A stretch of 64,000 bases of DNA, taken from an uncultured Pseudomonadales bacterium (lineage in GTDB: Bacteria > Patescibacteriota > Microgenomatia > UBA1400 > UBA12028). The stretch covers positions 231,671-295,670 of the forward strand of contig CAZDWN010000002.1 in assembly GCA_964509365.1 (NCBI GenBank). The letters are read 5' to 3'. The notes below the pieces were generated by a model. It ran no database searches, was not told where the DNA came from, and worked only from the letters and a program-made list of their open reading frames with translations. Shown one piece after another: positions 8,721 through 64,000 of this stretch. Position 1 is the stretch's first letter, and every line of letters starts with the position of its first letter. The position numbers were made by a program, and so were the translations under genes.

Positions 8721-8738
8721 ATTTTCCCTTACTACATA

Positions 8739-29783: not shown

Positions 29784-30797
29784 CTAATTCCATTTCCACA
29801 ATTTCTTGTACTTGAGATACACTCGATTCCACGTTTGCTGACGTGCCCATTGGTATGCATCATCAATTTGTTTTGTGTAGTCTTCGCTTTTGATCAAAGT
29901 CAGCGCTTGTTTGAGCTCAAGCTCCGAACGGACGATGACCATGTCTTGGGAGCGAGGATGTGCCATCAGGTAATCTACTTTTAGTTCGTCAGCAGCGTAT
30001 GCGACGACGAGAGTCCTGCATTGCATTGCCTCCACAATAGCCAGATAGGATGAGACACACGCGATGTCGTACTGTGGGAAAACGGCACAGCTATCGTCGA
30101 TAGTGCCAAGTTTTGACCCTGGTCCGAACATGTCCAACTGGCAATTGTCCAGTGACCTGATTACGTTCTCATAGATCCTTGCTCCCGTGTCTTGACTGAT
30201 TCTCCCGACGAAGACTCCTCTGATTTTTTTGGATTTTGGTAATTGGATTTTGAAATTTGGTAGACATTCTCCTCCTCCATACGTCACTTCGTCAGGTTTG
30301 GTGCCGTACCATTTCTCGATCCAGTATCCGACTGCCATGCTACCACTCGTCCAACGTTGGATCATCTGTCTAGTCCGCTTCGCTTTCGGATCAATGTAAA
30401 GCTCACGGCCTTCGCCCGCCGAAGTCTTGACGGAGGAGGGCTCAAAGCCATGGTACGTGATATAGACTTTTTTCCACGGAAACAGGATTCGGATTGGCCA
30501 ATACCAGAAGAAGACGTCGTGGATCTGGATGACGTCAGCTTGGATAAACGTCAATATGTGGGCCAGCATCCAGCTCCAGATCTCGATCCGTGCTTGGATT
30601 TTGCCTCCATTCGCAGTCACTCGGTGGACATTCACTCCATCGATTACTTCCTCGCTCTTAAGCTGCGAGTCGTGTTTGAGCGTGAATACGTCAACATGAT
30701 GACCGTCCTTGATCGCTTCCCTCGATATGCCAGACACATGTTTTTCTACTCCTCCGATGTGAGGGGCATACAGCCTGCATATCATTACAATCTTCAT
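29784..30797 (-). CDS. glycosyltransferase family 4 (GT-B fold)
   Basis: MKIVMICRLYAPHIGGVEKHV, the GT4 N-terminal signature. Confidence 0.7.
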   Translation of the reverse strand: MKIVMICRLYAPHIGGVEKHVSGISREAIKDGHHVDVFTLKHDSQLKSEEVIDGVNVHRVTANGGKIQARIEIWSWMLAHILTFIQADVIQIHDVFFWYWPIRILFPWKKVYITYHGFEPSSVKTSAGEGRELYIDPKAKRTRQMIQRWTSGSMAVGYWIEKWYGTKPDEVTYGGGECLPNFKIQLPKSKKIRGVFVGRISQDTGARIYENVIRSLDNCQLDMFGPGSKLGTIDDSCAVFPQYDIACVSSYLAIVEAMQCRTLVVAYAADELKVDYLMAHPRSQDMVIVRSELELKQALTLIKSEDYTKQIDDAYQWARQQTWNRVYLKYKKLWKWN

Positions 30798-35934: not shown

Positions 35935-36957
35935 TTATCGGGATGCCAAAGTGAGATTTGGATCGCGGTCAAAGTCCAGAGAATTGGGTTCATGGTGAGC
36001 AGCGGCAATACCGATCATGGCAGCATTGTCGGTGCACAACCGAGAAGTGTAAGGGAAATAGACAGGTAGATCATGACTTTTCCCAAAGGCCCGTAGTGCC
36101 TTCCGCACTTCAAGATTTTTGATCACTCCACCTCCCACGATGATCGAGGTGAGCTCTCTATTTGCGATCGCATACTCGAGTTTCTCAGTAAGATGTTTGA
36201 TCGCGGCGGTTTGAAATGCCAGTGCGATATCAGCGATGTTTTGCCGTGTGAGGTTGGGATACGATGCGACGATCCGTGACGCTGCCGTCTTGAGTCCCGA
36301 AAAACTCATATCACTACTATGGATTTGGCGCATCGGGACCGGAAACTTCACAGCTCCCGGAGTCCCTTCCCTGGCAATCTTCTCAAGGAAAGGTCCAGCC
36401 GGATATCCGAGCCCTAGCATTCTTCCGATCTTGTCATAGGCTTCCCCCATCGCATCATCCAATGTCTTCCCCACGATCTCATACTCTCCAACCGCTTTTG
36501 CATAGACAAATTGCGTATTTCCTCCTGAAAGTATCACACCCATGATCGGAAATTGAGAATTGAAAATTGAAAATTGAGAATTCTTTCGTTTTGGCTGCGC
36601 CAAAAACGAAAGCAAGTGTCCTTCTAGATGATTGACCGCGATGATTGGCTTTTTATACTTCAGTGCCAGTTCTTTTGCTTTGGCGATGCCCACCTCCAGA
36701 CAAATCGAAAGACCTGGTCCTCGGGTGACCGCGATGCGATCGATGTCGTCCCAAGTTTTGTGAGCCCGTTTGAGCGCGAGCGCTATCACCGCATCGATAT
36801 GATCTTCATGAGATTTTCGAGCCAGTCGAGGCACGATGCCTCCATATTCCAGATGGAGTGAGAGGTCGGTTGTCAGGACATTCGAGAGGATGGTCGTGTC
36901 TTGCGTGACTGCGACGGCAGTGTCATCAAAGGAGGTGTCGATAGCGAGCATGGTCAT
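35935..36957 (-). CDS. tsaD: tRNA N6-adenosine threonylcarbamoyltransferase
   Basis: MLAIDTSFDDTAVAV...HLEGH...VILSGG, as in TsaD. The gene contains a heptanucleotide-repeat-encoded insertion KNSQFSIFNSQF. Confidence 0.85.
   Translation of the reverse strand: MTMLAIDTSFDDTAVAVTQDTTILSNVLTTDLSLHLEYGGIVPRLARKSHEDHIDAVIALALKRAHKTWDDIDRIAVTRGPGLSICLEVGIAKAKELALKYKKPIIAVNHLEGHLLSFLAQPKRKNSQFSIFNSQFPIMGVILSGGNTQFVYAKAVGEYEIVGKTLDDAMGEAYDKIGRMLGLGYPAGPFLEKIAREGTPGAVKFPVPMRQIHSSDMSFSGLKTAASRIVASYPNLTRQNIADIALAFQTAAIKHLTEKLEYAIANRELTSIIVGGGVIKNLEVRKALRAFGKSHDLPVYFPYTSRLCTDNAAMIGIAAAHHEPNSLDFDRDPNLTLASR
36549..36583. repeat. 5 x 7-nt tandem array (GAAATTG AGAATTG AAAATTG AAAATTG AGAATTC) inside tsaD
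   Basis: Direct reading of the sequence. It encodes KNSQFSIFNSQF in-frame. Confidence 0.75.
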
Positions 36958-42096: not shown

Positions 42097-42122
42097 ACAA
42101 AATAGCTGTTAGTTATTAGCTG

Positions 42123-43280
42123 TTAGCTTTTAGTTTTAAGTTGAAAGACAAAAACTTCGCGTTTTGTCGTCGCATCTGGTCTATCATAGATGAGGCCAGA
42201 GAATACACTATTGTATCCGTAGGCCTCGAGTCTGTCAACCAGAGGTGCGAGGGTATACACGGTCTTTTTGATCTCGATTCGTGGAAGTGCAATAGCGATT
42301 CTACTTCCCGGCTCCATGACGGTCGCCAATTGTTTGAACGCTCCGAGGTACAGCTTTTCTAGTCCTTTAAAGATATTTGGGACTGCACCTGGCTTTGGCT
42401 TCAATGCTCCCAAGTATCCTTCCGCGGCGACGCCGTGTACTTTTCCACCGATCATTTCTGGTTTTAGATGGGCGACGTCACTCGTGGCGACTGCAAATTG
42501 ACTCGTCAACTTGTATTGCCCGATGAGCCACTCAGCATTTTTCTGTGTTTGGCCGACCGCTTCGACACGTAGATCGGTACCTACTCCAGTATACCCAAGC
42601 ATCATGGCTTCCATGACCACGGTACCCGTTCCGCAAAATGGATCCAAAAGTCGTTTCCCTTCACCACCTTGTGGCAAAGCGAGGTTGACGAGGATTCTGG
42701 CAATTTTTGGAGGGAGCATGCCGTGTTGGCGATCTGCGGCTGGCTTCATGCGATCGCGGACTGTCCAGTCATCGATATTTTGGATGGCTATGGTGTATCC
42801 GATGTAGGTGACTGCTTTTTCGCGGACGATGACGCATTCCTCGACATTTTGATGGAGGAGGACACTCGCTCCGAGTCCGGCGCGTGTCCCTTCGACAAAT
42901 CGCACGGTATATCCGGTATCTTTGAGAGCTTCTTTGATACGGTAGTGGTCCACGGCTTTGAGAGTATCTCTCCCGATCTCAGCCAGTCCAAACCAGATTT
43001 TCTGTTTTTCTTTGCCAAGTTTCTCAAGAATTGTGACACATTTGGTTTCCAATTCTTCAGTCGATGGCTCACTTAAGGTCTCTTCGATCACTGAAATCTT
43101 TAAAGTACCCCCGAGGATTGCCTGCAACTGCGTCGCTTCTACTAGCGAGAGGTTGGCGACTTTGATGATGGTCGGCGTGATGGTCTCGATGGTCGCTTCA
43201 TTGTAGCGAGCATGCAAGACCGTCTCGAGCTCTGCAAAAGCAAGCTCGTGAGTACGGCCAATGAAGAATAAAAATTCCAT
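42123..43280 (-). CDS. THUMP-domain SAM-dependent RNA (m2G-type) methyltransferase (RlmL/Trm14-like)
   Basis: LLDPFCGTGT motif I and an N-terminal THUMP-like region. Located between rplU and rpmA. Confidence 0.65.
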   Translation of the reverse strand: MEFLFFIGRTHELAFAELETVLHARYNEATIETITPTIIKVANLSLVEATQLQAILGGTLKISVIEETLSEPSTEELETKCVTILEKLGKEKQKIWFGLAEIGRDTLKAVDHYRIKEALKDTGYTVRFVEGTRAGLGASVLLHQNVEECVIVREKAVTYIGYTIAIQNIDDWTVRDRMKPAADRQHGMLPPKIARILVNLALPQGGEGKRLLDPFCGTGTVVMEAMMLGYTGVGTDLRVEAVGQTQKNAEWLIGQYKLTSQFAVATSDVAHLKPEMIGGKVHGVAAEGYLGALKPKPGAVPNIFKGLEKLYLGAFKQLATVMEPGSRIAIALPRIEIKKTVYTLAPLVDRLEAYGYNSVFSGLIYDRPDATTKREVFVFQLKTKS

Positions 43281-43334
43281 ATATCTAAGGGTAAAAGGGA
43301 AAGGACAAAGGGTAAAGTAGGAACCCTGCTCGCT

Positions 43335-45179: not shown

Positions 45180-45212
45180 ATCTATTTAGTATACCTCCTT
45201 AACTAATTTAAT

Positions 45213-45284
45213 GTCATCCTGAGCAGCCAAGCCTGCCTACCGGCAGGCAGGTGTATTCACTTGGCGGTCGAATGGATAGTTTTC
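45213..45284. repeat. Structured repeat element copy A: GTCATCCTGAGC, a hairpin with a TACC loop, then GGTCGAATGGATAGTTTTC
   Basis: Shares both termini with copies B and C. The nested inverted repeat is AGCCAAG-GCCTGCC-tacc-GGCAGGC-...-CTTGGC. Confidence 0.7.
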
Positions 45285-45847
45285 TCTGTAATTTCTGAAG
45301 CTTTCATATTTTCATGATCATTTTTGTGATCACGAATGTAAAACTCTTTGGTCATCAAACGTTTGAAGTCTGATACGCGCGATACAAACTCAGTTTGATT
45401 GAGATGATCGAGTTCGTGTTGGATGACCCGAGCAAGGATCCCATCGCAGGTCAATTGAAATTTGCCTCCATTCTCATCGCATGCTTCGACTGTAATTTTC
45501 TGTGACCGCTTCACTGGACCAAATATTTGAGCATTGCTGACACTCCCACAACCTTCGAAGATGACGTTTTTCTTCGTTGACGATTGTACAATTTTTGGAT
45601 TGATATACACCCTGAAGATATCACTTTGGTTTTTGGGTCGGGATTCAGTCTCCCTTGGTTCAGTCACAAAGATCTGGTAGTTTTCGCCGATTTGTGGAGC
45701 TGCCATGCCGACAAGCTCTTCTTTGATCATCGTATCGCGAAGATCAGCGATCACATGCTGGATTTTCGGATCATGAAAATCAGTCACCTGTTTATTTTCT
45801 GCGTGTAACTTTGGATCCCCGATTTGGACAGTTTGACGAATGGACAT
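45257..45847 (-). CDS. def: peptide deformylase (the C-terminal 10 codons are encoded by repeat copy A)
   Basis: GMAAPQIG, EGCGS and HELDH motifs. Confidence 0.85.
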   Translation of the reverse strand: MSIRQTVQIGDPKLHAENKQVTDFHDPKIQHVIADLRDTMIKEELVGMAAPQIGENYQIFVTEPRETESRPKNQSDIFRVYINPKIVQSSTKKNVIFEGCGSVSNAQIFGPVKRSQKITVEACDENGGKFQLTCDGILARVIQHELDHLNQTEFVSRVSDFKRLMTKEFYIRDHKNDHENMKASEITEKTIHSTAK

Positions 45848-45848
45848 A

Positions 45849-46490
45849 TTATTTAAATCCGTGCTCAAATATTGCTTCGGCTAATTTCTGGTGCCCAGCA
45901 CTATTCCAGTGCACACCATCTACATCACTTGATTCGACTAGGATTGCAGCGTCAATAAAGCTGCAGTTCTCTACTCTTTGCGACATCGGTTCGTACAGTT
46001 GAGCCAATTTTTCGGACTTCTCTTTCGCACCCGCATAGAGTTCAGGCCGTACCTCTTTTACAATTGGAGGAGAAATGAGAATAATTTTTGGCTTTGGTAG
46101 AGCGACATTTGCACAAAACGCATCGACTTTCTGAATCAACTGTTCCATGCCTTTTCCAATTTGCTCTGCAGAGCGGTTGTACTTAGTCTTCATATCATTC
46201 GTTCCAAGCATGATGATGAGCACATCGATGGGATTATGTGTCTCAAGAATTGGCATAAACAGCTTAAGTCCATTTCGCATTGGTTTTGATTGGTCGGGAT
46301 CATCGAGGTCAATCGTTCGGCTATTGAGTCCTTCCTCGATAATCTCATAGGCGGTACCTAGCTGTTCTTGAAGGATGCCAGTCCAGCGCACTGAAAGTGG
46401 ATACCGTTCGGTCTTTGAACCAGGAATTTTTCCCCATGTGTTTGAGTCGCCAAAACAAAGTACTCGCTTCGCGTTCACATTTGTATTCAT
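45849..46490 (-). CDS. SGNH/GDSL hydrolase
   Basis: FGDSNT block I and GTND block. Confidence 0.7.
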   Translation of the reverse strand: MNTNVNAKRVLCFGDSNTWGKIPGSKTERYPLSVRWTGILQEQLGTAYEIIEEGLNSRTIDLDDPDQSKPMRNGLKLFMPILETHNPIDVLIIMLGTNDMKTKYNRSAEQIGKGMEQLIQKVDAFCANVALPKPKIILISPPIVKEVRPELYAGAKEKSEKLAQLYEPMSQRVENCSFIDAAILVESSDVDGVHWNSAGHQKLAEAIFEHGFK

Positions 46491-46525: not shown

Positions 46526-46900
46526 ATGAGAAAAATACTCAGACAAATTACTTCGCATTTGCATTTTCATATCACAGGTGTCCATCCGCCTGACGGATTT
46601 ATACCTGCTTTGGAGACGCTACTGTTACTTCTCGCATCTGGCACGATGTTTTACTCACATTTTGAAGGCTGGTCGTACTTTGATTCGTTTTACTTTACGG
46701 TCGTCACGATCACGACAGTCGGGTATGGTGACTTGCATCCTACGTCGACTCTTTCCAAGAGCTTTACCATGCTACTGATCTTCATGGGAGTGGGGTTGGG
46801 CTTGTACGTGATCACTACCTTCGCTGAGAGTGTCCGTAATGGACGTGAGCGAAGACTCGAACGATTGGAATCACTTCTCAAAAAAACCACTGCTATTTAG
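46526..46900 (+). CDS. minimal two-TM K+ channel (pore signature TVGYGD)
   Basis: TTVGYGD selectivity filter flanked by two hydrophobic helices. Confidence 0.65.
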   Translation: MRKILRQITSHLHFHITGVHPPDGFIPALETLLLLLASGTMFYSHFEGWSYFDSFYFTVVTITTVGYGDLHPTSTLSKSFTMLLIFMGVGLGLYVITTFAESVRNGRERRLERLESLLKKTTAI

Positions 46901-49836
46901 ATTTTCGTAATACTTGCTTCGCCGACGGTGAGATTGCGGACCAGAGTCTTCGCTTTGAGCTCGGATTCAAATTGTGAGGGCCAAGACGGCAAGGTCGCAT
47001 CGACGAGATCACCGACATCGACACCAGGGGTCGCTTTGCGCAGGTCTTGGATCGTGCGGACGGCTTCTCGCATCTCCCCTTCCGCGATCAATTCTGGCGT
47101 CAGTGTCTTATCGAGTGAGACAACCAGCTTTTCTTTGTCGACTTTCTGCTCATATTTTTTGATGTTGGTTTCCGCGAGAATGACTTTCCACACATCATCA
47201 CCTAGTTCCATTGGGACAAAGCCGACGATCTTCGCGAGCGGTTGACGTAGTTTGATACTGTGAGTCTTGCGGATTCGATGTGCATCTTCGACGACACTTT
47301 GAGCGACTTTCATCTCAGATTCGAGTTTGTCATTCATGAAGACTTCCAAATCCACGAGATTTGGCCAGTCAGTCAAGTGAATAGATTCGCCGGATTCACT
47401 GATCCCTTGATAGATGAGCTCTGTGGTGAACGGGATAAATGGTGCAAACAGCTTGCAGAGCGTGACCAAGGCGCGAGCCAAGATGTCTTTGCTCTCTGGA
47501 TACTTGTCTTCTTTGAGCCGTTCTCTCGAGAGTCTGACATACCATGTGGAAAACTCAGCGGTGAAATCCATCAAGAGTCTCGTCGCTAAGACTACATCAT
47601 ATTCATCCATTGCAATCGTGACATCGCGGACGACATGCGCCAGTCGTGAGAGCAACCAACGATCAAGTACATGCAGAGTTGAGAGTTGATAGTTTACGGT
47701 CCTTGCTTTCACTTTCCCCTTTGCGCTTTCCCCTTTGCTCTTCCCGTAGAGCGCATAGAACCCATACACATTCCAGAGAATATTCATCACTTTGTTTTGG
47801 ATCTCATGCACTGACTTCTCAGCAAAATTGAGATTTTCTCCACGCATGATTGGACTGCTCATCAAATACAAACGGAGAGAATCCACTCCATATTTGTTGA
47901 TGACGTCCATCGGATCAGGATAATTTTTCTTACTCTTGCTCATCTTCGTCCCATCTTCAGCGAGGATTGTCCCTGTCGTGAGACTATTCTCAAATGCATT
48001 TGACCCGAAGATCCCGACAGAGAGGACGTGCATGCAGTAAAACCAAGCTCTTGTCTGTGCGATATATTCAGTGATGAACTGCGCCGGATAGGCACCTTCA
48101 AACTTCTCTTTATTTTCAAACGGATAATGGATCTGCGCAAATGGCATCGATCCTGACTCGACCCAACAATCAAACACTTCAAAGATACGTTTTCCTTTGA
48201 TCGTTTTTTCGTCATCGATCCATAGTTCGATATCATCGATGAATTCACGATGAAGATCAGTGACTTGTGAAGCTCTGTTTGGATCCACGGCCCATTTTTT
48301 GAGCTCCTCGACTGATCCAACTACTCTCCAAAGCGGTTTCTTCCCTTGACCCGCCGAAGTCCCGTCCTGCGGGACGGAGGAGGTCCAGATGGGCATTGGT
48401 GTCCCCCAGTATCGACTTCGTGATACATTCCAATCTGGCGCTGTCTCGATCCCTTTGCCAAATCTGCCGTACTTGAGATGTTCAGGGAACCAATTGATAT
48501 TTTCATTGGCAGCGCTCATTGCTGGTTTGAGTGATTGCACATCGATAAACCAAGCAGGCATGGCATTGAAGTAGAGAGGAGTGCCACAGCGATAGCAAAA
48601 TGGATATGAGTGAGTGAAGTGATTGGCATTGAGGACTAGTCCTCGCTGTGTTAAGTCTTCGACGACCCAATTTTCTGATTTTTTATAAAATTGCCCAGCG
48701 AGCGGTGTGACGAAGTCGAAGAATTTTCCCTGATCATCGAGTGTCGGGACGCATGGCAAGTCTCGCTCCAGTGCGAGCTTGTAGTCATCTTCTCCGAAGA
48801 TCGCTGCCGTGTGTACGATACCGGATCCATCCTCAAGACTCACAAAGTCAGCAGTGGTCATGTAGAAGGCTTTTTTTCCTTCCAGTGGCATGTATGGATA
48901 CAGCCGCTCATATTCCATGCCTGCGAGTTCTGATCCTTTTACTGTTTTGATCACTTCGGCTTTCTTGGATCCCAACAGGTGTTCGATGTGTCCAAGTCGC
49001 TCTTTCGCTACCCAGTAGTATTCTTTTTCGTTGGTTTGTTCATTGAGATGCTCGATCATCGAGTACTCAGCATTTGGAAGTACCGCCAATGCGACGTTTC
49101 CCGGCAAGGTCCATGGCGTCGTCGTCCAAGCCACGAAATATGAGTTGAGAGTTGAGAGTTCAGAGTGGAGAGAGTTTTTTTTCACTTTGAACTTTACGTA
49201 GACGCTCCAATCCTCGACATCTTTGTAGGAGTTGTCCATGGCTATTTCAAAGTTTGAGAGTGGCGTACTGCAGCGAGGACAATACAAGATCACTTTTCTT
49301 CCCTGGTAGACGAGACCTTTGTCATAGAGCTGCTTAAATCCCCACCATACGCTCTCCATGAATGTGGAGTCCATGGTTTTGTAGTTATTGTCAAAATCGA
49401 CCCATCGACCAAGACGTTCGATCGTTTTCTTCCATTCCTTATCGTATTTCATGATGGAAGCACGACAAGCAGCGTTGAAGGTATCGATCCCTAGCTCTTC
49501 GATCCCTTTCTTTCCCCCTTTGAGGCCAAGTTCTTTTTCGATGGCGTTCTCGATAGGTACTCCATGACAGTCCCATCCCCATACGCGCTCGACGCGCTTG
49601 CCTTTCATCGTCTGGTAGCGAGGGATGACATCTTTGCTCGTGGAGCTCAACAAATGCCCATAATGTGGTAATCCATTTGCAAATGGAGGCCCATCGTAGA
49701 AAATGTACGGATCATCCGCAGGACGATTCTCAACAGATTTTTTGAATGCATCAGAGTCGTTCCAAAATTGGAGCACTTCTTCTTCAAGTTTCGCAAAATC
49801 CGGTCGCCCTGGTGTATATGAAGGTAGTTTTTTCAT
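46897..49836 (-). CDS. ileS: isoleucyl-tRNA synthetase
   Basis: HIGH (PHYGHLL) and KMSKS motifs. 979 aa. Contains two heptanucleotide-array insertions. Confidence 0.9.
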   Translation of the reverse strand: MKKLPSYTPGRPDFAKLEEEVLQFWNDSDAFKKSVENRPADDPYIFYDGPPFANGLPHYGHLLSSTSKDVIPRYQTMKGKRVERVWGWDCHGVPIENAIEKELGLKGGKKGIEELGIDTFNAACRASIMKYDKEWKKTIERLGRWVDFDNNYKTMDSTFMESVWWGFKQLYDKGLVYQGRKVILYCPRCSTPLSNFEIAMDNSYKDVEDWSVYVKFKVKKNSLHSELSTLNSYFVAWTTTPWTLPGNVALAVLPNAEYSMIEHLNEQTNEKEYYWVAKERLGHIEHLLGSKKAEVIKTVKGSELAGMEYERLYPYMPLEGKKAFYMTTADFVSLEDGSGIVHTAAIFGEDDYKLALERDLPCVPTLDDQGKFFDFVTPLAGQFYKKSENWVVEDLTQRGLVLNANHFTHSYPFCYRCGTPLYFNAMPAWFIDVQSLKPAMSAANENINWFPEHLKYGRFGKGIETAPDWNVSRSRYWGTPMPIWTSSVPQDGTSAGQGKKPLWRVVGSVEELKKWAVDPNRASQVTDLHREFIDDIELWIDDEKTIKGKRIFEVFDCWVESGSMPFAQIHYPFENKEKFEGAYPAQFITEYIAQTRAWFYCMHVLSVGIFGSNAFENSLTTGTILAEDGTKMSKSKKNYPDPMDVINKYGVDSLRLYLMSSPIMRGENLNFAEKSVHEIQNKVMNILWNVYGFYALYGKSKGESAKGKVKARTVNYQLSTLHVLDRWLLSRLAHVVRDVTIAMDEYDVVLATRLLMDFTAEFSTWYVRLSRERLKEDKYPESKDILARALVTLCKLFAPFIPFTTELIYQGISESGESIHLTDWPNLVDLEVFMNDKLESEMKVAQSVVEDAHRIRKTHSIKLRQPLAKIVGFVPMELGDDVWKVILAETNIKKYEQKVDKEKLVVSLDKTLTPELIAEGEMREAVRTIQDLRKATPGVDVGDLVDATLPSWPSQFESELKAKTLVRNLTVGEASITKI
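47706..47747. repeat. About 5-6 x 7-nt tandem array (TTTCCCC TTTGCGC TTTCCCC TTTGCTC TTCCCGT) inside ileS
   Basis: Direct reading of the sequence. It encodes YGKSKGESAKGKVKA in-frame. Confidence 0.7.
49142..49176. repeat. 5 x 7-nt tandem array (GAGTTGA GAGTTGA GAGTTCA GAGTGGA GAGAGTT) inside ileS
   Basis: Direct reading of the sequence. It encodes KKNSLHSELSTLNSY in-frame. Confidence 0.75.
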
Positions 49837-51589: not shown

Positions 51590-51784
51590 AGAATTATTTC
51601 TAGTGTACCAGCTTTGCGCGTCTTTACTAAGAGATGTTTATGTTTTTATAGATCAATGCTTTTTATATATTCGAACAGTATTTGAGTTCGAAAAAGAGAA
51701 AAGCACAAATCATTCCCAAATTTGGCCCATCATAATCACTAAGGAAATCTTTTGCAAGAGAGAAAAAAATCTTGAATTGGCAAT

Positions 51785-51890
51785 GTCATCCTGAGCACTC
51801 AAGTGTACTCACATGAGGGTCGAATGGATAGTTTTCGAAAACTATCTTTCGGCTACCATGCTCGTGCCTCGCTTAGTCGCTCAAGATGAC
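51785..51890. repeat. Structured repeat element copy B plus an inverted partial second copy (head-to-head), intergenic between ftsA and ftsZ
   Basis: GTCATCCTGAGC, then CTCAAGTG-tact-CACATGAG, then GGTCGAATGGATAGTTTTC. This is followed by GAAAACTATC...GCTCAAGATGAC, the inverted termini. Confidence 0.7.
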
Positions 51891-51908
51891 AAACAATAAT
51901 GGAGGACG

Positions 51909-56230: not shown

Positions 56231-57436
56231 TTATGGCGCGTTCACACTTTCTATCCATTTTTTATATTGTCGACTCCGATCGGCATAATCTTCAAACAAT
56301 CCAAACGACGGTGATGCAGTCGACATGAGTACACTTGACCCGCTTGGAGTCAGTGCATACGCCTGAGTGATTGCCTCTTCCATGGACTGCACTGGTACGC
56401 ACTTGATCGAAGGAGCCAGCGCAGAGACGAGATCTGCGATGATTGCTCCTGTGGTCGGAAAGTGTATCAATGTGTGGACGGTTGATGTCGCGATTTTTGT
56501 GGCGAGCGCATCATATGATTGATGTCGATCAAATCCTCCGACGATGAGAGTCGCGAGGTGTGGCGTCGAATCGATCGCTAAGATCGTCGCTTCAGGGATC
56601 GTCGCCACAGCGTCATCGTAAAACGAAATGCCACGTTGTTCAGCCACTTTCTCCATGCGACCAGGAAGAGTCTTCAGCGTGGACAGAGCCTCTTTAATTT
56701 GTTTTTCAGATGCCTTGCGTTCGCGAGCGATCAGCACTGCTGGAATGTAATTGGTTGGCACGTCCAGAAGCTTCGCATTATATGGAATTCGTTTGGAGCG
56801 AACTTCGCTCAAGAGCGCGACGAGGTTTGGATACTCATCTCGATACAAACACAAATCAGTTTCCGTCTGTAACAGAAACAGATGTTGCTTGGCTCTGGTG
56901 TATTCTTCCATGGTGTCGTAATAGTCCAAATGATCCTGATACAGTGATGTGAAGACGGCGATATGCGTCCCGCGATGCAGTGACTCAGTTTGAAATGCGC
57001 TCATCTCAAACACTGCGGTCGTCTCGTCATCCATTTGATCGACAAAATCAAGGGCTGGTCTGCCGATATTTCCGATGAGCACTGCATGATGGCCAAGCGC
57101 GTTGAGGACGTGGGCGATCGCATGAGCCGTCGTGCTCTTGCCTTTGGTCCCAGTCACTGCGATGGTTTGCTCGCCAAACAGTTGCGTAAAGAGATCAGCT
57201 TGACTGGTCAAATAGGATTTTGACGATAGCGTGAGAAATTTTTTGGGGATGCCCGGTGATTTGAAAACGACATCTACACTTGGGACATCAAAGTGGTCTT
57301 GGTGATTCTCAAAAATGAAGACTTTGGTATGCGGGAAGTACTTTCGCAAAAACTGGGTCGTGCTTTTTCCCTCGCGACCGTTCCCGACGATTGCGATGCT
57401 TTGAGCGCTAGTGAGCCAGTCAGGAAAATCAGGCAT
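56231..57436 (-). CDS. murD: UDP-N-acetylmuramoylalanine--D-glutamate ligase
   Basis: Mur ligase P-loop VTGTKGKSTT. Position between mraY and ftsW. Confidence 0.8.
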   Translation of the reverse strand: MPDFPDWLTSAQSIAIVGNGREGKSTTQFLRKYFPHTKVFIFENHQDHFDVPSVDVVFKSPGIPKKFLTLSSKSYLTSQADLFTQLFGEQTIAVTGTKGKSTTAHAIAHVLNALGHHAVLIGNIGRPALDFVDQMDDETTAVFEMSAFQTESLHRGTHIAVFTSLYQDHLDYYDTMEEYTRAKQHLFLLQTETDLCLYRDEYPNLVALLSEVRSKRIPYNAKLLDVPTNYIPAVLIARERKASEKQIKEALSTLKTLPGRMEKVAEQRGISFYDDAVATIPEATILAIDSTPHLATLIVGGFDRHQSYDALATKIATSTVHTLIHFPTTGAIIADLVSALAPSIKCVPVQSMEEAITQAYALTPSGSSVLMSTASPSFGLFEDYADRSRQYKKWIESVNAP

Positions 57437-58709
57437 AGTGTTGTAAGAGCAATGGTAACTCTTTTCCTTCTCGTCTGTGTAGTGCCATCTTGAGTGCTTC
57501 GATTGATTCCGATCGAGTACCGACACATTCAAACGGTTTGAACTCAACTTTCCCTAGGAGTGCATCGAAATGTGGTATCAAATGATCTTGATTCATCACA
57601 TCAGATCGAAAGATGCGGGCGATTGTCTCATCATCGAGATATGCTGAGAGCAGCAACGCGACAAAGGCACATTTTCCACATTTTCCGCACCACACGTTGT
57701 CTTTTTGGCCGACATTGCAGCTATGGAACACTTCAAAATATTCTGGAAAAGTGACAAATTTTTCCATGATCGCCAGTTCATTCATCGAACGCAAATAACT
57801 AAAATATCGTGGTGAGCTCGATCCAAACAGTGAAGTGACATACGACTGAAAGTCGCGTTCAAATTCTACTGATTTGGAGTACTGGTGATTAATATCGATT
57901 CCTTCCCAAGTTCCTGTCGGCTCGTTACTGCTCGATTCATTCGAGATCGCGATCTGGGGTATCTCATACAGTCGTGCAGTCAGTATCGTAAAAAATGCGA
58001 GCACTGATGAGAATGGAGTATGCCCATTGGGATGACCTTCACTATTCAGTTCACTGAGACGAGAGTCTAGCGTTCGTGAAAAGACGATATCACCAAGTCT
58101 CGGATGTCTGGATCCAAACAGATCGATGACGTCTGCAGATGATCCCTTGAGTCCTGACCAGGTGTAGATGGCTCGACCCTCAACGGCCAGCAACTCTAGT
58201 GTCACGATCGAATCTTTGCCTCCACCTACTGGGACCAGCACAGCTGATAGCTTAGAGCTTGTAGCTTCTAGCTTGTCATCCTGAGCGACCTGGTACTCCA
58301 GGCGGTCGAAGGATAGTTTTCTTTCCGTGCTTTTGAATTCCGGCTTGAACGGCTTAATCTTATTTTGATAGAAAAATTCTCCGAGTCCAAAGTAAAACAG
58401 CTTTTGCCAAAATTGGATTTGAGTTGCATCTAAGTTCCCGCACTGGATCTCTATCGTCGGAGATAAAAATGCTTTCCAGTAGCTGGGGATCTCGGCGATT
58501 CCAAGTTGGAAGATATACTCATCGAGTTCAGGTTTTGAGATCTTTTTAACCATCTCTTCAGTCACACCTGAGATCGTATCGACAGTCGTCAGTTTCTCAT
58601 CGCCACAAGAGAACTGAAATGAGAGCTCGATTAGACCCGGCTTTAATTCGTATGAGTATGAGTCATACGAAAACAGAGGATACGTTTTTTGTAATTCTTC
58701 GAATGTCAT
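57429..58709 (-). CDS. hypothetical PP-loop (SGGxDS-type) ATP pyrophosphatase-like protein with CxxCGKC motif, inserted in the dcw cluster
   Basis: LVPVGGGKDS matches the PP-loop. A C-terminal WCGKCGKC cysteine cluster is present. The gene contains repeat copy C and a heptamer array in-frame. Confidence 0.5.
   Translation of the reverse strand: MTFEELQKTYPLFSYDSYSYELKPGLIELSFQFSCGDEKLTTVDTISGVTEEMVKKISKPELDEYIFQLGIAEIPSYWKAFLSPTIEIQCGNLDATQIQFWQKLFYFGLGEFFYQNKIKPFKPEFKSTERKLSFDRLEYQVAQDDKLEATSSKLSAVLVPVGGGKDSIVTLELLAVEGRAIYTWSGLKGSSADVIDLFGSRHPRLGDIVFSRTLDSRLSELNSEGHPNGHTPFSSVLAFFTILTARLYEIPQIAISNESSSNEPTGTWEGIDINHQYSKSVEFERDFQSYVTSLFGSSSPRYFSYLRSMNELAIMEKFVTFPEYFEVFHSCNVGQKDNVWCGKCGKCAFVALLLSAYLDDETIARIFRSDVMNQDHLIPHFDALLGKVEFKPFECVGTRSESIEALKMALHRREGKELPLLLQHYA
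58242..58276. repeat. 5 x 7-nt tandem array (AGCTGAT AGCTTAG AGCTTGT AGCTTCT AGCTTGT) abutting repeat copy C inside the PP-loop gene
   Basis: Direct reading of the sequence. It encodes KLEATSSKLSAV in-frame. Confidence 0.7.
58275..58321. repeat. Structured repeat element copy C, in-frame inside the PP-loop gene
   Basis: GTCATCCTGAGC, then CCTGG-tact-CCAGG, then GGTCGAAGGATAGTTTTC. Compensatory stem changes relative to copies A and B. Confidence 0.7.
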
Positions 58710-58761
58710 ATTCTGTCTTTGTAGGGGTTTGATTTATCAAACCCAAAGAACATTTCAATTT

Positions 58762-59805
58762 TTATAGTAGCGATATCCACAGTCCGATAAGCGTGAGGAT
58801 GAGGCCAGCGAGCCAGGCACGAGCGACGATCTTCGGTTCTTCCCAGCCGATATATTGAAGATAGAGATGAAATGGAGCGACCGGAAATATTTTCTTTTTC
58901 ATGATCGCTTTGGACAACAGCTGCATCCCACTCGTCAGTACCTCCACAAAGAAAAGTCCACCGATGACGACGAGTCCGACGGTCTTGCCGAGCAGAAGCC
59001 CGACGACCGCTAGAGTCGCACCAAAAGCGAGTGCTCCCACATCACCCATCCAGATACGTGCAGGATTCACATTGAAATACAAAAATGCGATCAATGATCC
59101 GATCCACAGTGAAATAAAAACTGAGAGCGGAGTATCTAAGATCGATGCCGACAAGATCCAGAATCCAAACAAACAGATCATCAAGATGCCAGCGGCGAGG
59201 CCGTCAAGTCCATCTGTAATATTGACTGCGTTCGCAAACGAGACGATGGTAAATGCAGCAAATGGCACATAGACCCATCCAAGATTGAGGGTTCCTAGGA
59301 ATGGAATATGCAGAAACGAGATCCCTAACCAGTTGTAGAGCATGAGTGCGATCGCAAATCCCAGTATCCACTGTAAGGTAAATTTATGGATCAAACGCAT
59401 CCCAAAGAACTTCGCTTTTTCAAATCCAAAAAACTTCTTTGCATCGTCGTAGAGACCAAGTGCACCAAACGACAGCAAAGTAAAAAACAAGATGACGACT
59501 TCAGGCTTCAAGGGATACACCGGTAAGATGGGGAAGCCAGACATCTGCATGAGCCAAAGGACGATCGGTGACAATAGCGCGACGACAGCGATGATCAGTG
59601 CTCCGCCACCGACAGGTGTCCCTGCTTTGTGTTGGTGAAAGCGATCAAAGATCGGACTTCGTTTCCCTAATGCGTCGATGGTAGTTTGCTTTTGCCTCTG
59701 AAATTTGATGCGATACAGCATGTTGATAAACGGCACAATGAGCAAACTCGTGGCAACAAACGAGATGATCACATTCCCAAGGTAGAAAGAAAGTGCGCTA
59801 TTCAT
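58762..59805 (-). CDS. mraY: phospho-N-acetylmuramoyl-pentapeptide transferase
   Basis: Polytopic, with conserved MraY Asp-rich loops. Confidence 0.85.
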   Translation of the reverse strand: MNSALSFYLGNVIISFVATSLLIVPFINMLYRIKFQRQKQTTIDALGKRSPIFDRFHQHKAGTPVGGGALIIAVVALLSPIVLWLMQMSGFPILPVYPLKPEVVILFFTLLSFGALGLYDDAKKFFGFEKAKFFGMRLIHKFTLQWILGFAIALMLYNWLGISFLHIPFLGTLNLGWVYVPFAAFTIVSFANAVNITDGLDGLAAGILMICLFGFWILSASILDTPLSVFISLWIGSLIAFLYFNVNPARIWMGDVGALAFGATLAVVGLLLGKTVGLVVIGGLFFVEVLTSGMQLLSKAIMKKKIFPVAPFHLYLQYIGWEEPKIVARAWLAGLILTLIGLWISLL

Positions 59806-59827
59806 ACGGCTCGACTGATCTCCTGGT

Positions 59828-61156
59828 CTACTGGTCTACTTGTCTAACTATCTTTGCTCCCATACTATTAAATTGTTCATCCAGATGCTCGTATCCTCGA
59901 TCGATTTGGCTTTTCGGATCACGGAGGATCGTCTCCCCAGTTGCACTCATCCCTGCGATCATGAGCGTAGCTCCGTGACGAAGATCCTTCACATCAAATG
60001 CTCCGCCGACGAGCGAGGCCGGACCGGTGATCCTTGCAGCATGAAGATCTGTTGCCGATCGATCCTTCCAATTAAAGTTATAGACTGATTCTGGGTCAGT
60101 GACAATCGGATTGTAGAGCTCGATATCTGCACCCATTGAGACGAGCGCAGGCACGTACTGGAATCGACTTTGAGAGATCGTCTCATGCACGGTGCTGACT
60201 CCATATGCCTGTGTCATGAGGATGACCCACAGTGGTTGCCAATCAGTCATAAAGCCCGGGAATATGGCAGTCTCGACATCGATCGCTTGCAGTGGCCCTT
60301 TATAAAAAAAGCGTATTCCGAAATCACCGACTTGCACTCCTGCACCGATCAGTTCAAGTTTTTCCAAGAAGCTCTCTAAGTCTTTGGCTTTGGCGTTTTC
60401 GACGACGATATCGCCTTTTGTGGCAAGCGCTGCGACTGCAAACGAGACGATTTGATTGCGGTCTGGCAAGATCTTATGGGTGGCCCCATGTAAGACGTCG
60501 ACACCCTCGATCTCGATGATTCGATTTGGAAGTCGTTTGATTTTCCCGCCCATGGCATTTAAGAATACGATGAGGTCATCTATTTCTGGTTCTTCAGCAG
60601 CATTTTCAAGAATTGTTTTGCCTTTGGCACGCACAGCAGCAAGAAGAAGTGTCTCAGTCCCCGTGTGAGTATTTTTCTCAAAACGATAGGTAGTACCCAC
60701 GAGCTCATTTGCAGTACAGATGATCAGTCCATCCTTTTGTTCGACGGTCACTCCAAGCGCTCGCAACCCATCAAAGTGGCGTTCGAGTGGACGCTTGCCG
60801 ATCTTGTCTCCACCTGGTTCGGGGACGACTGCTTTGCCGAATTTATGAAGGAATGCAGGGATAAACATGGTCGAGGCACGAGATGCTTCTCCATGCGTCG
60901 AGTCTACTTCAAAGTGCGTCAACCCCTCAGGGTCGACCACGTAGCATCGCTCACCGACTTCTTCGGCTCTGGCTCCAAGACTATTGATCAGTTTGGCGAC
61001 GAGCGCGACATCACTGATATGAGAAAAATTTAAAATCCTTGAGGGCGAGTCTGCCATCAGTGCCGCGATCATCAGTTTATAGGAAGCATTTTTGGCACCG
61101 CCGACGCGCACAGATCCGAAAAGTGGAGTGTTTCCCTGGACGCGAAAAGTCGGCAT
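59828..61156 (-). CDS. murA: UDP-N-acetylglucosamine 1-carboxyvinyltransferase with Asp at the fosfomycin-target Cys position
   Basis: The EPT fold. The motif reads PEPGGDKIGKRP, aligned to E. coli LPGGCTIGARP. Confidence 0.85.
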   Translation of the reverse strand: MPTFRVQGNTPLFGSVRVGGAKNASYKLMIAALMADSPSRILNFSHISDVALVAKLINSLGARAEEVGERCYVVDPEGLTHFEVDSTHGEASRASTMFIPAFLHKFGKAVVPEPGGDKIGKRPLERHFDGLRALGVTVEQKDGLIICTANELVGTTYRFEKNTHTGTETLLLAAVRAKGKTILENAAEEPEIDDLIVFLNAMGGKIKRLPNRIIEIEGVDVLHGATHKILPDRNQIVSFAVAALATKGDIVVENAKAKDLESFLEKLELIGAGVQVGDFGIRFFYKGPLQAIDVETAIFPGFMTDWQPLWVILMTQAYGVSTVHETISQSRFQYVPALVSMGADIELYNPIVTDPESVYNFNWKDRSATDLHAARITGPASLVGGAFDVKDLRHGATLMIAGMSATGETILRDPKSQIDRGYEHLDEQFNSMGAKIVRQVDQ

Positions 61157-61533: not shown

Positions 61534-62643
61534 CTACAAATTTTGGGCGATGAGTCGCTTGAGCTCATCAAGCCCCTCTCCCGTCTTTGCCGACACGAGC
61601 ACATGCCGTGTCCCCAGGAATTTTTCACGCAGGAGTTTTTTTTCTTCACTGCCCAAGTTGTCTATTTTATTGAGCACGAGCACTGGCTCTTGATACGCCG
61701 GCAACTCTTTGAGGATTTCTTTGACTGTCTCTATCTTCGAATCGATCCTCGCATCACTCGCATCGATGACATGGAGGAGGACATCTGCCTGAATACTCTC
61801 TTGGAGCGTCGAGCGGAATGCATTGATGAGCAATGGAGGCAATTCATCGATAAAGCCAATGGTGTCAGAGATGAGGACATCACCGTCGACTTTTGGGATG
61901 TGTACTTTCCCCAACACGCTATCAAGCGTCGTGAACAACTGTGAATTTTCCTGCTTTTCTTTCCCTGTCAGCAAATTAAATAGCGTTGTCTTCCCGGCAC
62001 TCGTATAGCCGACCAGCGCAGCAGTTCGGACACCGCTTCGTCGACGATCATTTATGCGACTTTGCGCCATCTTCGAACGATGAGCAAGCTCTGTCTCTAT
62101 TTGTTGCACCCGTCGTTTGATATGTCTGCGCTCTATCTCACTATTTGTCTCACCAGCTCCTCGCGTCCCGATCCCTCCGCCTTGTTTGGAGAGCACCGTG
62201 CCACCGAGACCATAGATACGCGGTCCAATATGCTTGATTCTGGCAAGTTCGATCTGTAGTTTTGCTTCGGTCGTTTTTGCGTGCATTTCAAAAATAGCGA
62301 GGATGAGACCGACGCGGTCCCAGACTTTGATCAGTCGATTGACCGGCCAGAGTGCCTGTTCGAGACGAAACAGTTGTCCTGGTTTCACGATGTCATTGAG
62401 GACGACGACATCTATTTTTTCATCCTCGACGAGATGTGTGAGCCATTCGACTTTGCCTCCACCGATATAGGTCCCTGCATGCGGCGTCGGGCGGTGTTGT
62501 GTGGATTTGGCCACCACGAGACCACCGGCAGTGTCGACAAGGGCTTCGAGCTCTTCCATGTCTTTGAGAGCTTTTTCCTCGTACTCATGTCGGGTGATCA
62601 CTTGCAGTAATACAAATCGAAGTTGTTGGTGTTGTGTGGTCAT
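61534..62643 (-). CDS. hflX: GTPase HflX
   Basis: HflX N-terminal domain plus the G-domain motifs GYTSAGKTTL and DTIG. Confidence 0.85.
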   Translation of the reverse strand: MTTQHQQLRFVLLQVITRHEYEEKALKDMEELEALVDTAGGLVVAKSTQHRPTPHAGTYIGGGKVEWLTHLVEDEKIDVVVLNDIVKPGQLFRLEQALWPVNRLIKVWDRVGLILAIFEMHAKTTEAKLQIELARIKHIGPRIYGLGGTVLSKQGGGIGTRGAGETNSEIERRHIKRRVQQIETELAHRSKMAQSRINDRRRSGVRTAALVGYTSAGKTTLFNLLTGKEKQENSQLFTTLDSVLGKVHIPKVDGDVLISDTIGFIDELPPLLINAFRSTLQESIQADVLLHVIDASDARIDSKIETVKEILKELPAYQEPVLVLNKIDNLGSEEKKLLREKFLGTRHVLVSAKTGEGLDELKRLIAQNL

Positions 62644-63641
62644 TGGATGAAAAACACTTCGCGCTCGAGTTTGATCCCGAACTTGTCTTGCACTTTTTGC
62701 TCTACTTTAGTTGCGAGTGCATCAATATCTTCACTTGTAGCAGCTCCAAGATTGATGATATATGTCGCGTGCTTGTCACTGACTTGCGCTCCACCGACAG
62801 TCGTCCCTTTCAATCCCGCTTGATCGATCAAAAATCCCGCTGCAATTTGCGTGACGTTGTGTTCGGTTTTCACTGCCTCCTTCGGAACTGTAATCTGTGC
62901 GCTGATCGCTGTGAGCTGTTCGCTGGATATCGCAGGGTTTCGAAACATGCACCCAGTACTCGGGACCCCGATCGGTTGCGTTGCGACGCGCTTCTTTGCC
63001 GCCTCTAGCATTTTTTCTTGGATATGCACTTGGTCACCCTTATAGAGTTCAAACGTCGCTCGCAGGACTATCGCTGGCACTTCATGAAAGATGGAGTAGT
63101 CATACCCAAACTTCAGCTGCTCTTTTGGCCAAACTTCCCGCTTCCCTTCCGGAGTGCAGACTTCGACATGGAGAATACTGTTTCCGATGAGTTCATGAAG
63201 CGTAAAATGCGAGTTGTTGACGATCGCCCCTCCGATCGTCCCTGGCACGCCCACAAAATATTCCAAGCCCGTGAGTCCAGCAGACATGGTGTCATTTGCA
63301 AACATGGCTGTGATGACGCCACTGTCCGCTGTCGCACGCACTTTCTCTGTGCCTTCCACTGGATTGAACTCCAGTGATTTCGTTTTGTTGATGATCACAA
63401 GTTTCTGGATGCCAGCATCTGAGATGACAGTATTACTCGCGCCGCCAAGCACGACAAACGGCACCGCATGGATAAAACAAAACGAACACAAGTCATAGAG
63501 CTCGTCTACGTTGTGAAGCTCTACGAAGAGCTGCGCCGGTCCTCCGACTTTCATATACGTGAAGGAAGCGAGTGGCACATCTTGCATGAGCGGCAGATGA
63601 GGAAATGAGGTAATGATGGTATCAATTTCTTTTTGTTGCAT
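62640..63641 (-). CDS. murB: UDP-N-acetylenolpyruvoylglucosamine reductase
   Basis: FAD-binding GGASN region and a MurB C-terminal domain. Confidence 0.8.
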   Translation of the reverse strand: MQQKEIDTIITSFPHLPLMQDVPLASFTYMKVGGPAQLFVELHNVDELYDLCSFCFIHAVPFVVLGGASNTVISDAGIQKLVIINKTKSLEFNPVEGTEKVRATADSGVITAMFANDTMSAGLTGLEYFVGVPGTIGGAIVNNSHFTLHELIGNSILHVEVCTPEGKREVWPKEQLKFGYDYSIFHEVPAIVLRATFELYKGDQVHIQEKMLEAAKKRVATQPIGVPSTGCMFRNPAISSEQLTAISAQITVPKEAVKTEHNVTQIAAGFLIDQAGLKGTTVGGAQVSDKHATYIINLGAATSEDIDALATKVEQKVQDKFGIKLEREVFFIQ

Positions 63642-63665
63642 AGTGAGTTTTTACTGATCTCCTGA

Positions 63666-64000
63666 TCACCTGGTCTCCTGGTCCACTGATATCTTCTCAT
63701 ATACTTTATAAATATCCCCAGCTCCCATAGTGATAAAAACATCGGTTGACTTTAGAATTTCTGGAATTCGCCCTGCGAGTTCATTATAATTTGACACTTG
63801 GCATTGGACATTCGTCATTCGCGAAGCGAGCAGGCTTGAACTCACACTCGGATCCTCCTGTTCTCTTGCACTAGCAAAAATGTCGAGCAAGATGACCTCA
63901 TCTGCCAGTGATAATGAGCTCACAAATCCATCAAATAATGCCTTGGTGCGAGAGTACGTATGAGGCTGAAATGCCACGACGACGCGTTTCCCTGGTCGCC
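63666..64000 (-). CDS. murC: C-terminal part of a Mur ligase (probably UDP-N-acetylmuramate--L-alanine ligase). The gene continues beyond the window.
   Basis: Mur ligase C-terminal domain sequence. Lies upstream of murB. Confidence 0.5.
   Translation of the reverse strand, partial: RPGKRVVVAFQPHTYSRTKALFDGFVSSLSLADEVILLDIFASAREQEDPSVSSSLLASRMTNVQCQVSNYNELAGRIPEILKSTDVFITMGAGDIYKVYEKISVDQETR

Follow-up and report, generated by a model that had tools for sequence, protein, structure and literature searches.

How does a dispersed, hairpin-forming repeat come to lie inside the gene of a conserved enzyme whose reading frame stays intact? The question is raised by a 64,000-nucleotide stretch of contig CAZDWN010000002.1 (assembly GCA_964509365.1, from an uncultured Pseudomonadales bacterium), which we refer to as the window. 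In it, a copy (copy C) of a palindromic repeat that we named family X and an adjoining array of heptamers are both in frame within a homologue of murL. We consider it probable, at roughly four chances in five, that copy C is a tolerated insertion resembling the Rickettsia palindromic elements (RPEs) and that it now serves as the interdomain linker of MurL.

Copy C and a heptamer array in the murL reading frame

On the + strand, copy C reads T-GTCATCCTGAGC-GACCTGGTACTCCAGGCG-GTCGAAGGAT-AGTTTTC, with an outer helix (ATCCT-GA-GC / TC-GA-AGGAT) enclosing a central hairpin (CCTGG-TACT-CCAGG). murL is encoded on the minus strand, where copy C accounts for all of codons K131-D145 together with two bases of R130 and one base of K146. 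The units of the array are AGCTGAT, AGCTTAG, AGCTTGT, AGCTTCT, and AGCTTGT, which are imperfect and represent four different sequences. The array and the repeat overlap by 3 nt, the final TGT of the array also supplying the tag T of the repeat and its GT, while the last unit read by murL extends into the conserved β-strand AVLVP (strand 156-160 in the structural model). Three of the six frames of copy C are open, and murL reads one of these; the stop-free translation across both elements is ...TE-RKLSFDRLEYQVAQDD-KLEATSSKLSA-VLVPVGGGKDS. The sequence and the codon map confirm the original prediction for positions 58238-58330, made from the sequence alone, in which heptamers and then the repeat were described as lying in frame, N-terminal of VPVGGGKDS. 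The array scores low in Tandem Repeats Finder (37-44); five identical in-phase tetramers spaced 5-12 nt apart are present at two places in the window and in none of 200 first-order Markov simulations.

The open reading frame (ORF) that hosts both elements matches the NCBIfam MurL model NF041275 over residues 12-417 (E value of 1.4e-65, 221.6 bits), a score below the cut-off of 700, which is specific to Xanthomonadales. The Pfam domains MurL_N and MurL_epimerase_C (PF26299 and PF26298) are present in an identical protein (P0001) and in all 120 homologues listed of more than 7,000 database matches. In an alignment of 25 homologues, every residue that is invariant in the family is kept. On these matches, the ORF encodes a MurL homologue (UDP-N-acetyl-alpha-D-muramoyl-L-alanyl-L-glutamate epimerase). 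The homologues share the fused two-domain architecture, which speaks for one gene and not for two genes split at the repeat. The nearest named homologue is from Candidatus Woesebacteria, and the closest nonidentical protein in a search of 5.8 billion has 74% identity.

The repeat coincides with the linker of the MurL model

The structure of the protein was predicted by AlphaFold2 with the 25-sequence alignment. The model is confident (mean predicted local distance difference test score [pLDDT] of 90.9; predicted template modeling score of 0.89), and pLDDT falls below 50 only at residues 131-133 and 135-151, between strand 124-127 and strand 156-160, the latter leading into the PP-loop. In the model, this low-confidence stretch coincides with the peptide encoded by the repeat and the array. 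A sequence search found no solved MurL structure. Among the 25 aligned homologues, the segment from N-x-I-x-P-F to VPVGGGKDS is the least conserved part of MurL; its length ranges from 25 to 46 residues in 97 homologues (median, 30) and is 37 here. Since 27 of these 37 residues are encoded by the repeat or the array and the total length is within the family range, we take the repeat-derived peptide to be the present linker, in agreement with one of the two earlier readings of the element, as a domesticated linker.

We compared the linker DNA in the five closest relatives, whose loci are designated L001, L003, L004, L005, and L006 and whose proteins are 74%, 72%, 70%, 54% (57% in the 25-homologue alignment), and 63% identical to the MurL of the window, respectively. 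The L005 linker holds a family X copy, ...TTCGACC-CCGC-TCT-GCGGG-TCATC-GCTCAGGATGAC, which has a different central hairpin, measures 54 nt counting tag and tail, and shares the orientation and frame of copy C. The linkers of L001 and L004 contain instead a 24-nt GTAG-tagged palindrome of a second family, family Y (GGG(C/T)(G/T)TGATGAATCA(C/A)(G/A)CCC-CTAC), encoding G(V/L)MN(H/Q)(A/T)PT. A third palindrome, around CCGCCAGCTGGCGG, occupies the linker of L006, and no recognizable palindrome was seen in that of L003. All of these linker palindromes except that of L001 have copies outside the linker in the same locus: between ftsA and ftsZ for the GTAG palindrome in L004, just upstream of murL for the third palindrome in L006, and between murA and mraY for family X in L005. 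The copies inside linkers have lengths divisible by three (48 nt for copy C, 54 nt in L005, and 24 nt for the GTAG palindrome), and copy A, at the end of a gene, has 73 nt.

The same peptide was thus not found in the orthologues, whose linkers are unrelated and in several cases built from other palindromes. Because the orthologous linkers hold different palindromes, most with copies elsewhere in their own locus, the repeat-encoded peptide is, as far as these comparisons reach, not ancestral. They likewise indicate that the MurL linker in this clade is occupied repeatedly by different dispersed palindromes. The segment had been suspected to be a copy of a dispersed hairpin-forming repeat and not an ancestral piece of protein, and both the copies elsewhere and the unrelated orthologous linkers bear this out.

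The L005 MurL (P0006) has a second insertion of about 33 residues (TKGTGSPNSMSPIGQLGIEPREYPGSKEMTDGD; 10900-11000) in another variable loop. A tRNA-like origin of this insertion was considered but not supported; neither a tRNA gene nor a second copy was found.

Family X is widespread and has a conserved, covarying outer helix

Besides copy C, the window holds copies A, B, and B' (Table 1). All four have a TGTC head and an AGTTTTC tail, around centers of 19-41 nt, and A, B, and the inverted B' agree with copy C over a 12-nt head and an 18-19-nt tail. For the tail pattern GGTCGAAKGGATAGTTTTC, 0.04 chance occurrences are expected in the window, where there are two exact matches; copy C fits it apart from a 1-nt deletion. 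Part of copy A (45257-45284) makes up the end of a peptide deformylase gene (45257..45868, minus strand), namely its final nine codons (EKTIHSTAK) and its TGA stop. With this end, the protein runs on for about 28 residues past the deformylase profiles.

A scan of one genome per species with the pattern GTCATCCTGAGC-N(10-40)-GTCGAA-N(0-1)-GGAT found family X in at least 120 stretches, with more than 200 copies in these. The hosts among the matches listed are mostly Acidobacteriota, along with Clostridia, Actinomycetota, Fibrobacter, Bacteroidota, Patescibacteria, Proteobacteria, Verrucomicrobiota, and others. From about 200 copies we arrived at the consensus (T/C)GTC-ATCCT-GA-GC-G(A/G)AG-[centre]-..AG-TC-GA-AGGAT-C(T/C)C, or in short form TGTC-ATCCTGAGC...TCGAAGGATC, with position -1 being T in 84% and C in 13% of 206 copies. 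The outer helix has nine positions. Positions 6 and 7 form a near-invariant tandem G.A/A.G; at position 9 the main type has C.T, which is replaced by C-G or G-C in variants. Of 82 flank types, 55 open with an A-U pair and 71 have U-A as the second pair, and compensated variants occur at both places. Such variants were found for each of the seven canonical pairs of the helix; examples are ATTCT/AGAAT, ATCCC/GGGAT, ATGGT/ACCAT, and GTCC../..GGAC, as well as GACC/TGGA for the inner G-C. We counted 44 doubly changed cells versus 16.3 ± 2.6 after shuffling (0 of 500 shuffles as high), with the caveat that the rows were gathered by a pattern allowing two substitutions per flank. When the helix register was slid, covariation was far lower.

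The centers of family X are 3 to 60 nt long, have a median identity of 0.40 at equal length, and fold at -0.35 kcal/mol per nt, compared to -0.18 for shuffles. Some centers recur as modules. One, CCTGCCTACCGGCAGGCAGG, is found in the center of copy A (45228-45250) and in locus L073 (5739-5760), and another, CCGCCAG(C/T)TGGCGG, is the center of X-type copies in L107 (~140 and ~3996) and lies at the core of the palindrome that stands free in L006 (~327 and ~870). These recurrences suggest palindromes nested within palindromes. Inverted + and - copies lie 30 to 100 nt apart in many loci.

The heptamers do not appear to belong to the family. A reading in which they form part of the repeat is not supported, since the other copies are without an array. 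AGCT stands within 10 nt upstream of 10 of 206 family X copies against a background of 2.6%, slightly more often than expected; a link between heptamers and family X was rejected, with AGCT barely above background and absent upstream of copies A and B.

Rfam at the gathering threshold gave no family X match in the window and 18 family-bearing loci (only tRNAs, riboswitches, and chance matches), and around copy C only chance matches appeared at E values up to 10. By eye, we rejected a hammerhead reading of the CUGA...GAA core, in which G8-A9 and A15.1 are absent, as well as k-turn and attC readings, for which there is no 3-nt bulge and there are no GTT/AAC boxes. A full-text literature search for the family X head and tail strings returned unrelated primers only.

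We looked in the fetched loci for stop-free frames that span a family X copy and have Pfam domains on both sides. In-frame copies, in either orientation, were found in genes for RecG, leucyl-tRNA synthetase, PheT, and a TrpC-TrpF fusion (Table 1). The RecG, leucyl-tRNA synthetase, and PheT hosts echo the published bias of intragenic repetitive extragenic palindromes (REPs) toward DNA repair and tRNA-related genes.

Table 1. Features in the window and in-frame family X copies in other loci (L numbers)
Feature	Position	Strand	Remarks
murL homologue	57429..58709	-	426 aa, intact ORF; MurL_N domain, linker, PP-loop epimerase domain
Copy C, family X	58274..58321	+	48 nt; TGTC tag, outer helix, central hairpin, tail AGTTTTC
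Heptamer array, five units	58242..58276	-	AGCTNNN on +, NNNAGCT coding; codons K146-A156
Low-confidence interdomain linker, predicted disordered	58257..58319	-	Residues 131-151; only segment of the AlphaFold model with pLDDT below 50
VPVGGGKDS, PP-loop-type motif	58209..58235	-	Directly after heptamer array; P160 and G162-S167 invariant across 25 homologues
Copy A, family X	45212..45284	+	73 nt; center 41 nt with sub-hairpin CCTGCCTACCGGCAGGCAGG
Copy B, family X	51784..51836	+	Between ftsA and ftsZ
Copy B', family X	51837..51891	-	Variant GTCATCTTGAGC...CCGAAAGAT, compensated stem change; abuts B tail to tail
Family Y, GTAG-tagged palindrome	58721..58744	+	GTAG-GGGTTTGAT-T-TATCAAACCC; mraY-murL spacer
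Period-7 arrays	8728-8758, 30227-30260, 36550-36582, 42103-42133, 43287-43317, 47675-47742, 49142-49172, 62895-62925		
RecG helicase	L083 (Parcubacteria) 1528-1640		Inverted dimer within helicase core
Leucyl-tRNA synthetase (LeuRS)	L122 2488-2552, 3039-3083		Two copies
PheT B5 domain	L010 4083-4110		In-frame copy
TrpC-TrpF fusion	L100		In-frame copy

Comparison with known repeat systems

Intragenic elements of the REP or RPE kind are a known phenomenon. The first description of the murL segment called a translated element unusual, a view that is not supported: palindromic repeats in frame are already documented for Rickettsia RPEs and for GTAG- and CGTC-tagged REPs in many species (PMC3733652). 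Di Nocera, De Gregorio, and Rocco sorted REPs in 2013 into these two tagged superfamilies (PMC3733652). Units of the CGTC type have a CGTC or TGTC tag (CCTC is allowed), stems of 8 to 9 bp that start with A-T and T-A, loops of 4 to 5 nt, and a CCA tail. They frequently form dimers, occur in five phyla at ORF ends and inside genes, and have no associated transposase; members include RPE-4 and RPE-6 of Rickettsia conorii and dRS3 of Neisseria (PMC3733652).

Family X resembles the CGTC units in its unpaired CGTC/TGTC tag (TGTC in all four window copies), in the start of its stem with A-T followed by T-A, and in its short 3' tail. Inverted pairs are frequent in both, both span many phyla with no known transposase, and both are found inside genes and at ORF 3' ends, where a stop codon is supplied. 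When we back-translated CGTC-4 (RPE-4) from its published peptide WIPWSNHGMT, GTC-ATCC...GGAT-CC was common with family X, whereas the stem differed. The two also part ways in loop and tail and possibly in pairing: the CGTC stem of 8 to 9 bp is fully paired, and the family X helix of nine positions includes the tandem G.A/A.G and, in the main type, the C.T position; the CGTC loop has 4 to 5 nt, compared to a hypervariable secondary hairpin of 3 to 60 nt; and the CGTC tail is CCA, as opposed to C(T/C)C (AGTTTTC in the window). Going by the text of PMC3733652, family X would be an extended relative of the CGTC REPs and RPEs that falls outside the four described families.

The Rickettsia elements are the nearest parallel for copy C itself. 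Both are palindromic repeats in frame in a conserved gene whose ORF remains intact. RPE-1 and its relatives, as Ogata et al. reportedly described in 2000, are palindromic repeats in frame in conserved Rickettsia genes, and the insert is said to be tolerated at surface-exposed sites without a function of its own. In the AlphaFold model, copy C would likewise be in a tolerant, exposed position, with pLDDT below 50 at residues 131-151. The differences are of size (100 to 150 nt for RPE-1 versus 48 nt), sequence family, and organism, and the peptide here is predicted from the ORF.

REPs with a GTAG tag, and the doublets termed REPINs, are mobilized by REP-associated tyrosine transposases (RAYT, or TnpA-REP). 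Family Y, with its GTAG tag and 9- to 10-bp palindrome, appears to fit this type; family X does not carry the GTAG tag, and no RAYT gene came up, no search aimed at one having been made. The B/B' doublet is like a REPIN in that an inverted pair folds into one long hairpin. Miniature inverted-repeat transposable elements inserted in coding regions, for example in Coxiella, can add peptide segments (for Coxiella, PMC5896051; reviews, PMC10969869 and PMC3184786). These elements have terminal inverted repeats derived from insertion sequences and target site duplications, unlike family X; no target site duplication flanks copies A, B/B', or C.

A proposed tolerated insertion and its alternatives

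We propose that a dispersed stem-loop repeat became incorporated into murL at the part coding for the unstructured linker between the N-terminal and PP-loop epimerase domains, arriving by insertion rather than by deep inheritance. Copy C would persist because it is 48 nt (16 codons) long with a stop-free frame, in a linker constrained only by adequate length. A neighboring 7-nt unit may have been amplified by replication slippage, plausibly starting from the native ...CAGCTGT... at the beginning of the conserved strand; three extra units correspond to 21 nt, or 7 codons. The native linker sequence would have been lost or overwritten in the process. Beyond spacing, we expect no specific role for the peptide, and we expect the hairpin to be carried passively in the mRNA of the dcw (division and cell wall) cluster. 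By analogy with REPs, REPINs, and the insertion sequences IS200/IS605, family X may spread through a single-strand hairpin intermediate, either by a tyrosine (HUH) transposase acting in trans or by recombination.

Several points weigh against this proposal. There is no repeat-free allele of this particular murL, its nearest relative being the 74% identical protein of L001. The orientation and frame shared by the copies in the window and in L005 would also fit a single old insertion that was replaced in intermediate lineages. That the segment is translated is deduced from the integrity of the ORF, and we infer both how the heptamers arose (by slippage) and how family X spreads. Finally, copies A, B, and C have one shared orientation relative to transcription, which would fit a role at the RNA level as well.

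An RNA role of this kind is the strongest alternative, although we rate it unlikely. The element would be kept for a function in the dcw transcript (processing, stabilizing, attenuating, or causing a pause at the MurL domain boundary), and the peptide would be a by-product. In addition to the common orientation relative to the genes, this is consistent with the predicted hairpins: copy C folds as mRNA at -16.6 kcal/mol, and the B/B' pair (junction between 51836 and 51837) forms one long hairpin of about -45 kcal/mol with z-scores of -5.2 to -6.5. Most REPs are situated 3' of ORFs and are regarded as elements working at the RNA level (PMC3733652), and the copy in murL lies, in the model, exactly at the domain boundary. 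However, orthologous murL genes have no element at this site or have unrelated palindromes, copies inside genes elsewhere occur in both orientations, and the z-scores of single copies are modest (-2.0 to -2.9; -2.1 for copy C). With copy C folding only modestly, the RNase III cleavage or ribosome pause suggested earlier is not supported. The lack of an Rfam match argues against this role too.

It is very improbable that the segment is an ancestral linker which resembles the repeat by chance, or that the intergenic copies derive from murL. Such an origin would account for L005, whose family X copy shares linker position, orientation, and frame with copy C, but the closer relatives (70-74% identity) are without an X copy there. 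Moreover, family X is found in at least 120 loci in many phyla, unrelated to murL, and copy C has the same head and tail as the intergenic copies, while the surrounding linker cannot be aligned between orthologues.

The least probable alternative is that the heptamers are a contingency tract for phase variation, in which each 7-nt unit gained or lost would shift the frame and turn murL off or on. In its favor, the period of the array, within a coding region, is not divisible by three, and the array is statistically real; yet slippage should be rare in five imperfect units of four sequences, four of the five closest relatives, with conserved dcw synteny, do not have the array, and switching off a peptidoglycan precursor enzyme of the dcw cluster is judged costly.

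A tolerated insertion remains our preferred explanation, and it has some wider implications. The murL linkers amount to a natural experiment in which one linker of an enzyme in an essential pathway is made from three palindrome families in closely related bacteria with small genomes. The pattern points to linkers of this kind as places that absorb selfish DNA, and to repeat-derived peptides as possible substitutes for a native linker. It would extend the Rickettsia RPE phenomenon to a lineage near Candidatus Woesebacteria, for which a limited literature search found no such report and, more broadly, nothing specific on REPs or intragenic repeats in Candidate Phyla Radiation bacteria. What is added to the known phenomenon is the repeated colonization of one linker by three palindrome families, together with a widespread family with a tandem G.A core, for which neither Rfam nor the searchable literature gave a match. 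For annotation, such elements explain odd motifs (..SFD..AQDD.., ..LRMT.., and ..VILS..) that appear in predicted proteins and in spurious ORFs. Only tentatively, and with the odds against it, family X might be more than a selfish repeat of one lineage: a pan-bacterial module of structured single-stranded DNA or RNA whose near-constant head and tail, with the tandem G.A, would be recognized by conserved machinery, with the center as a landing pad for nesting palindromes and flexible linkers as recurrent safe harbors, colonized independently by several palindrome families.

The murL neighborhood

The placement of murL in a dcw-type cluster, part of the original prediction, is borne out by its neighbors, which form the same-strand cluster murA-mraY-murL-murD-ftsW-murG-ftsA-ftsZ. 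mraY (58762..59805) is on one side and a murD-type ligase gene (56231..~57436) on the other. The ligase ORF matches TIGR01087 (murD) with 261.9 bits, above the cut-off, and its adjacency makes it a candidate MurD2 partner; MurL and MurD2 constitute an alternative route to the D-Glu of peptidoglycan (reviews, PMC8788868 and PMC5808125). The listed start of the murD ORF is a TTG that lies 119 nt within murL (57429-57547). The 402-aa MurD of the relatives begins about 10 nt before the murL stop, which suggests that murD starts at the ATG at 57436, with an 8-nt overlap with the murL stop. The family Y palindrome is 12 nt upstream of the murL ATG, at the site expected for a ribosome-binding site.

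Other short arrays in the window

The window contains about 10 period-7 arrays of about 31 nt each (4.4 units), several of them inside long ORFs, and their unit sequences differ. The array at 36551 (AATT phase) also passes the test for five in-phase tetramers, which no simulated sequence did. In ileS (46897..49836, minus strand), two 51-nt segments (47675-47725 and 49148-49198) are 71% identical, each ending in CAACTCT heptamers. They are in frame, and their products, ..KVKARTVNYQLSTL.. and ..KVKKNSLHSELSTL.., fall in two variable loops; intragenic repeats of a second kind may be present in this genome. Two related period-8 arrays, with the units CTGGTCTA / CTGATCTC, are located at 59806-59874, spanning the junction of the murA stop and the mraY start, and at 63653-63705, adjoining the start of ORF 62640..63641.

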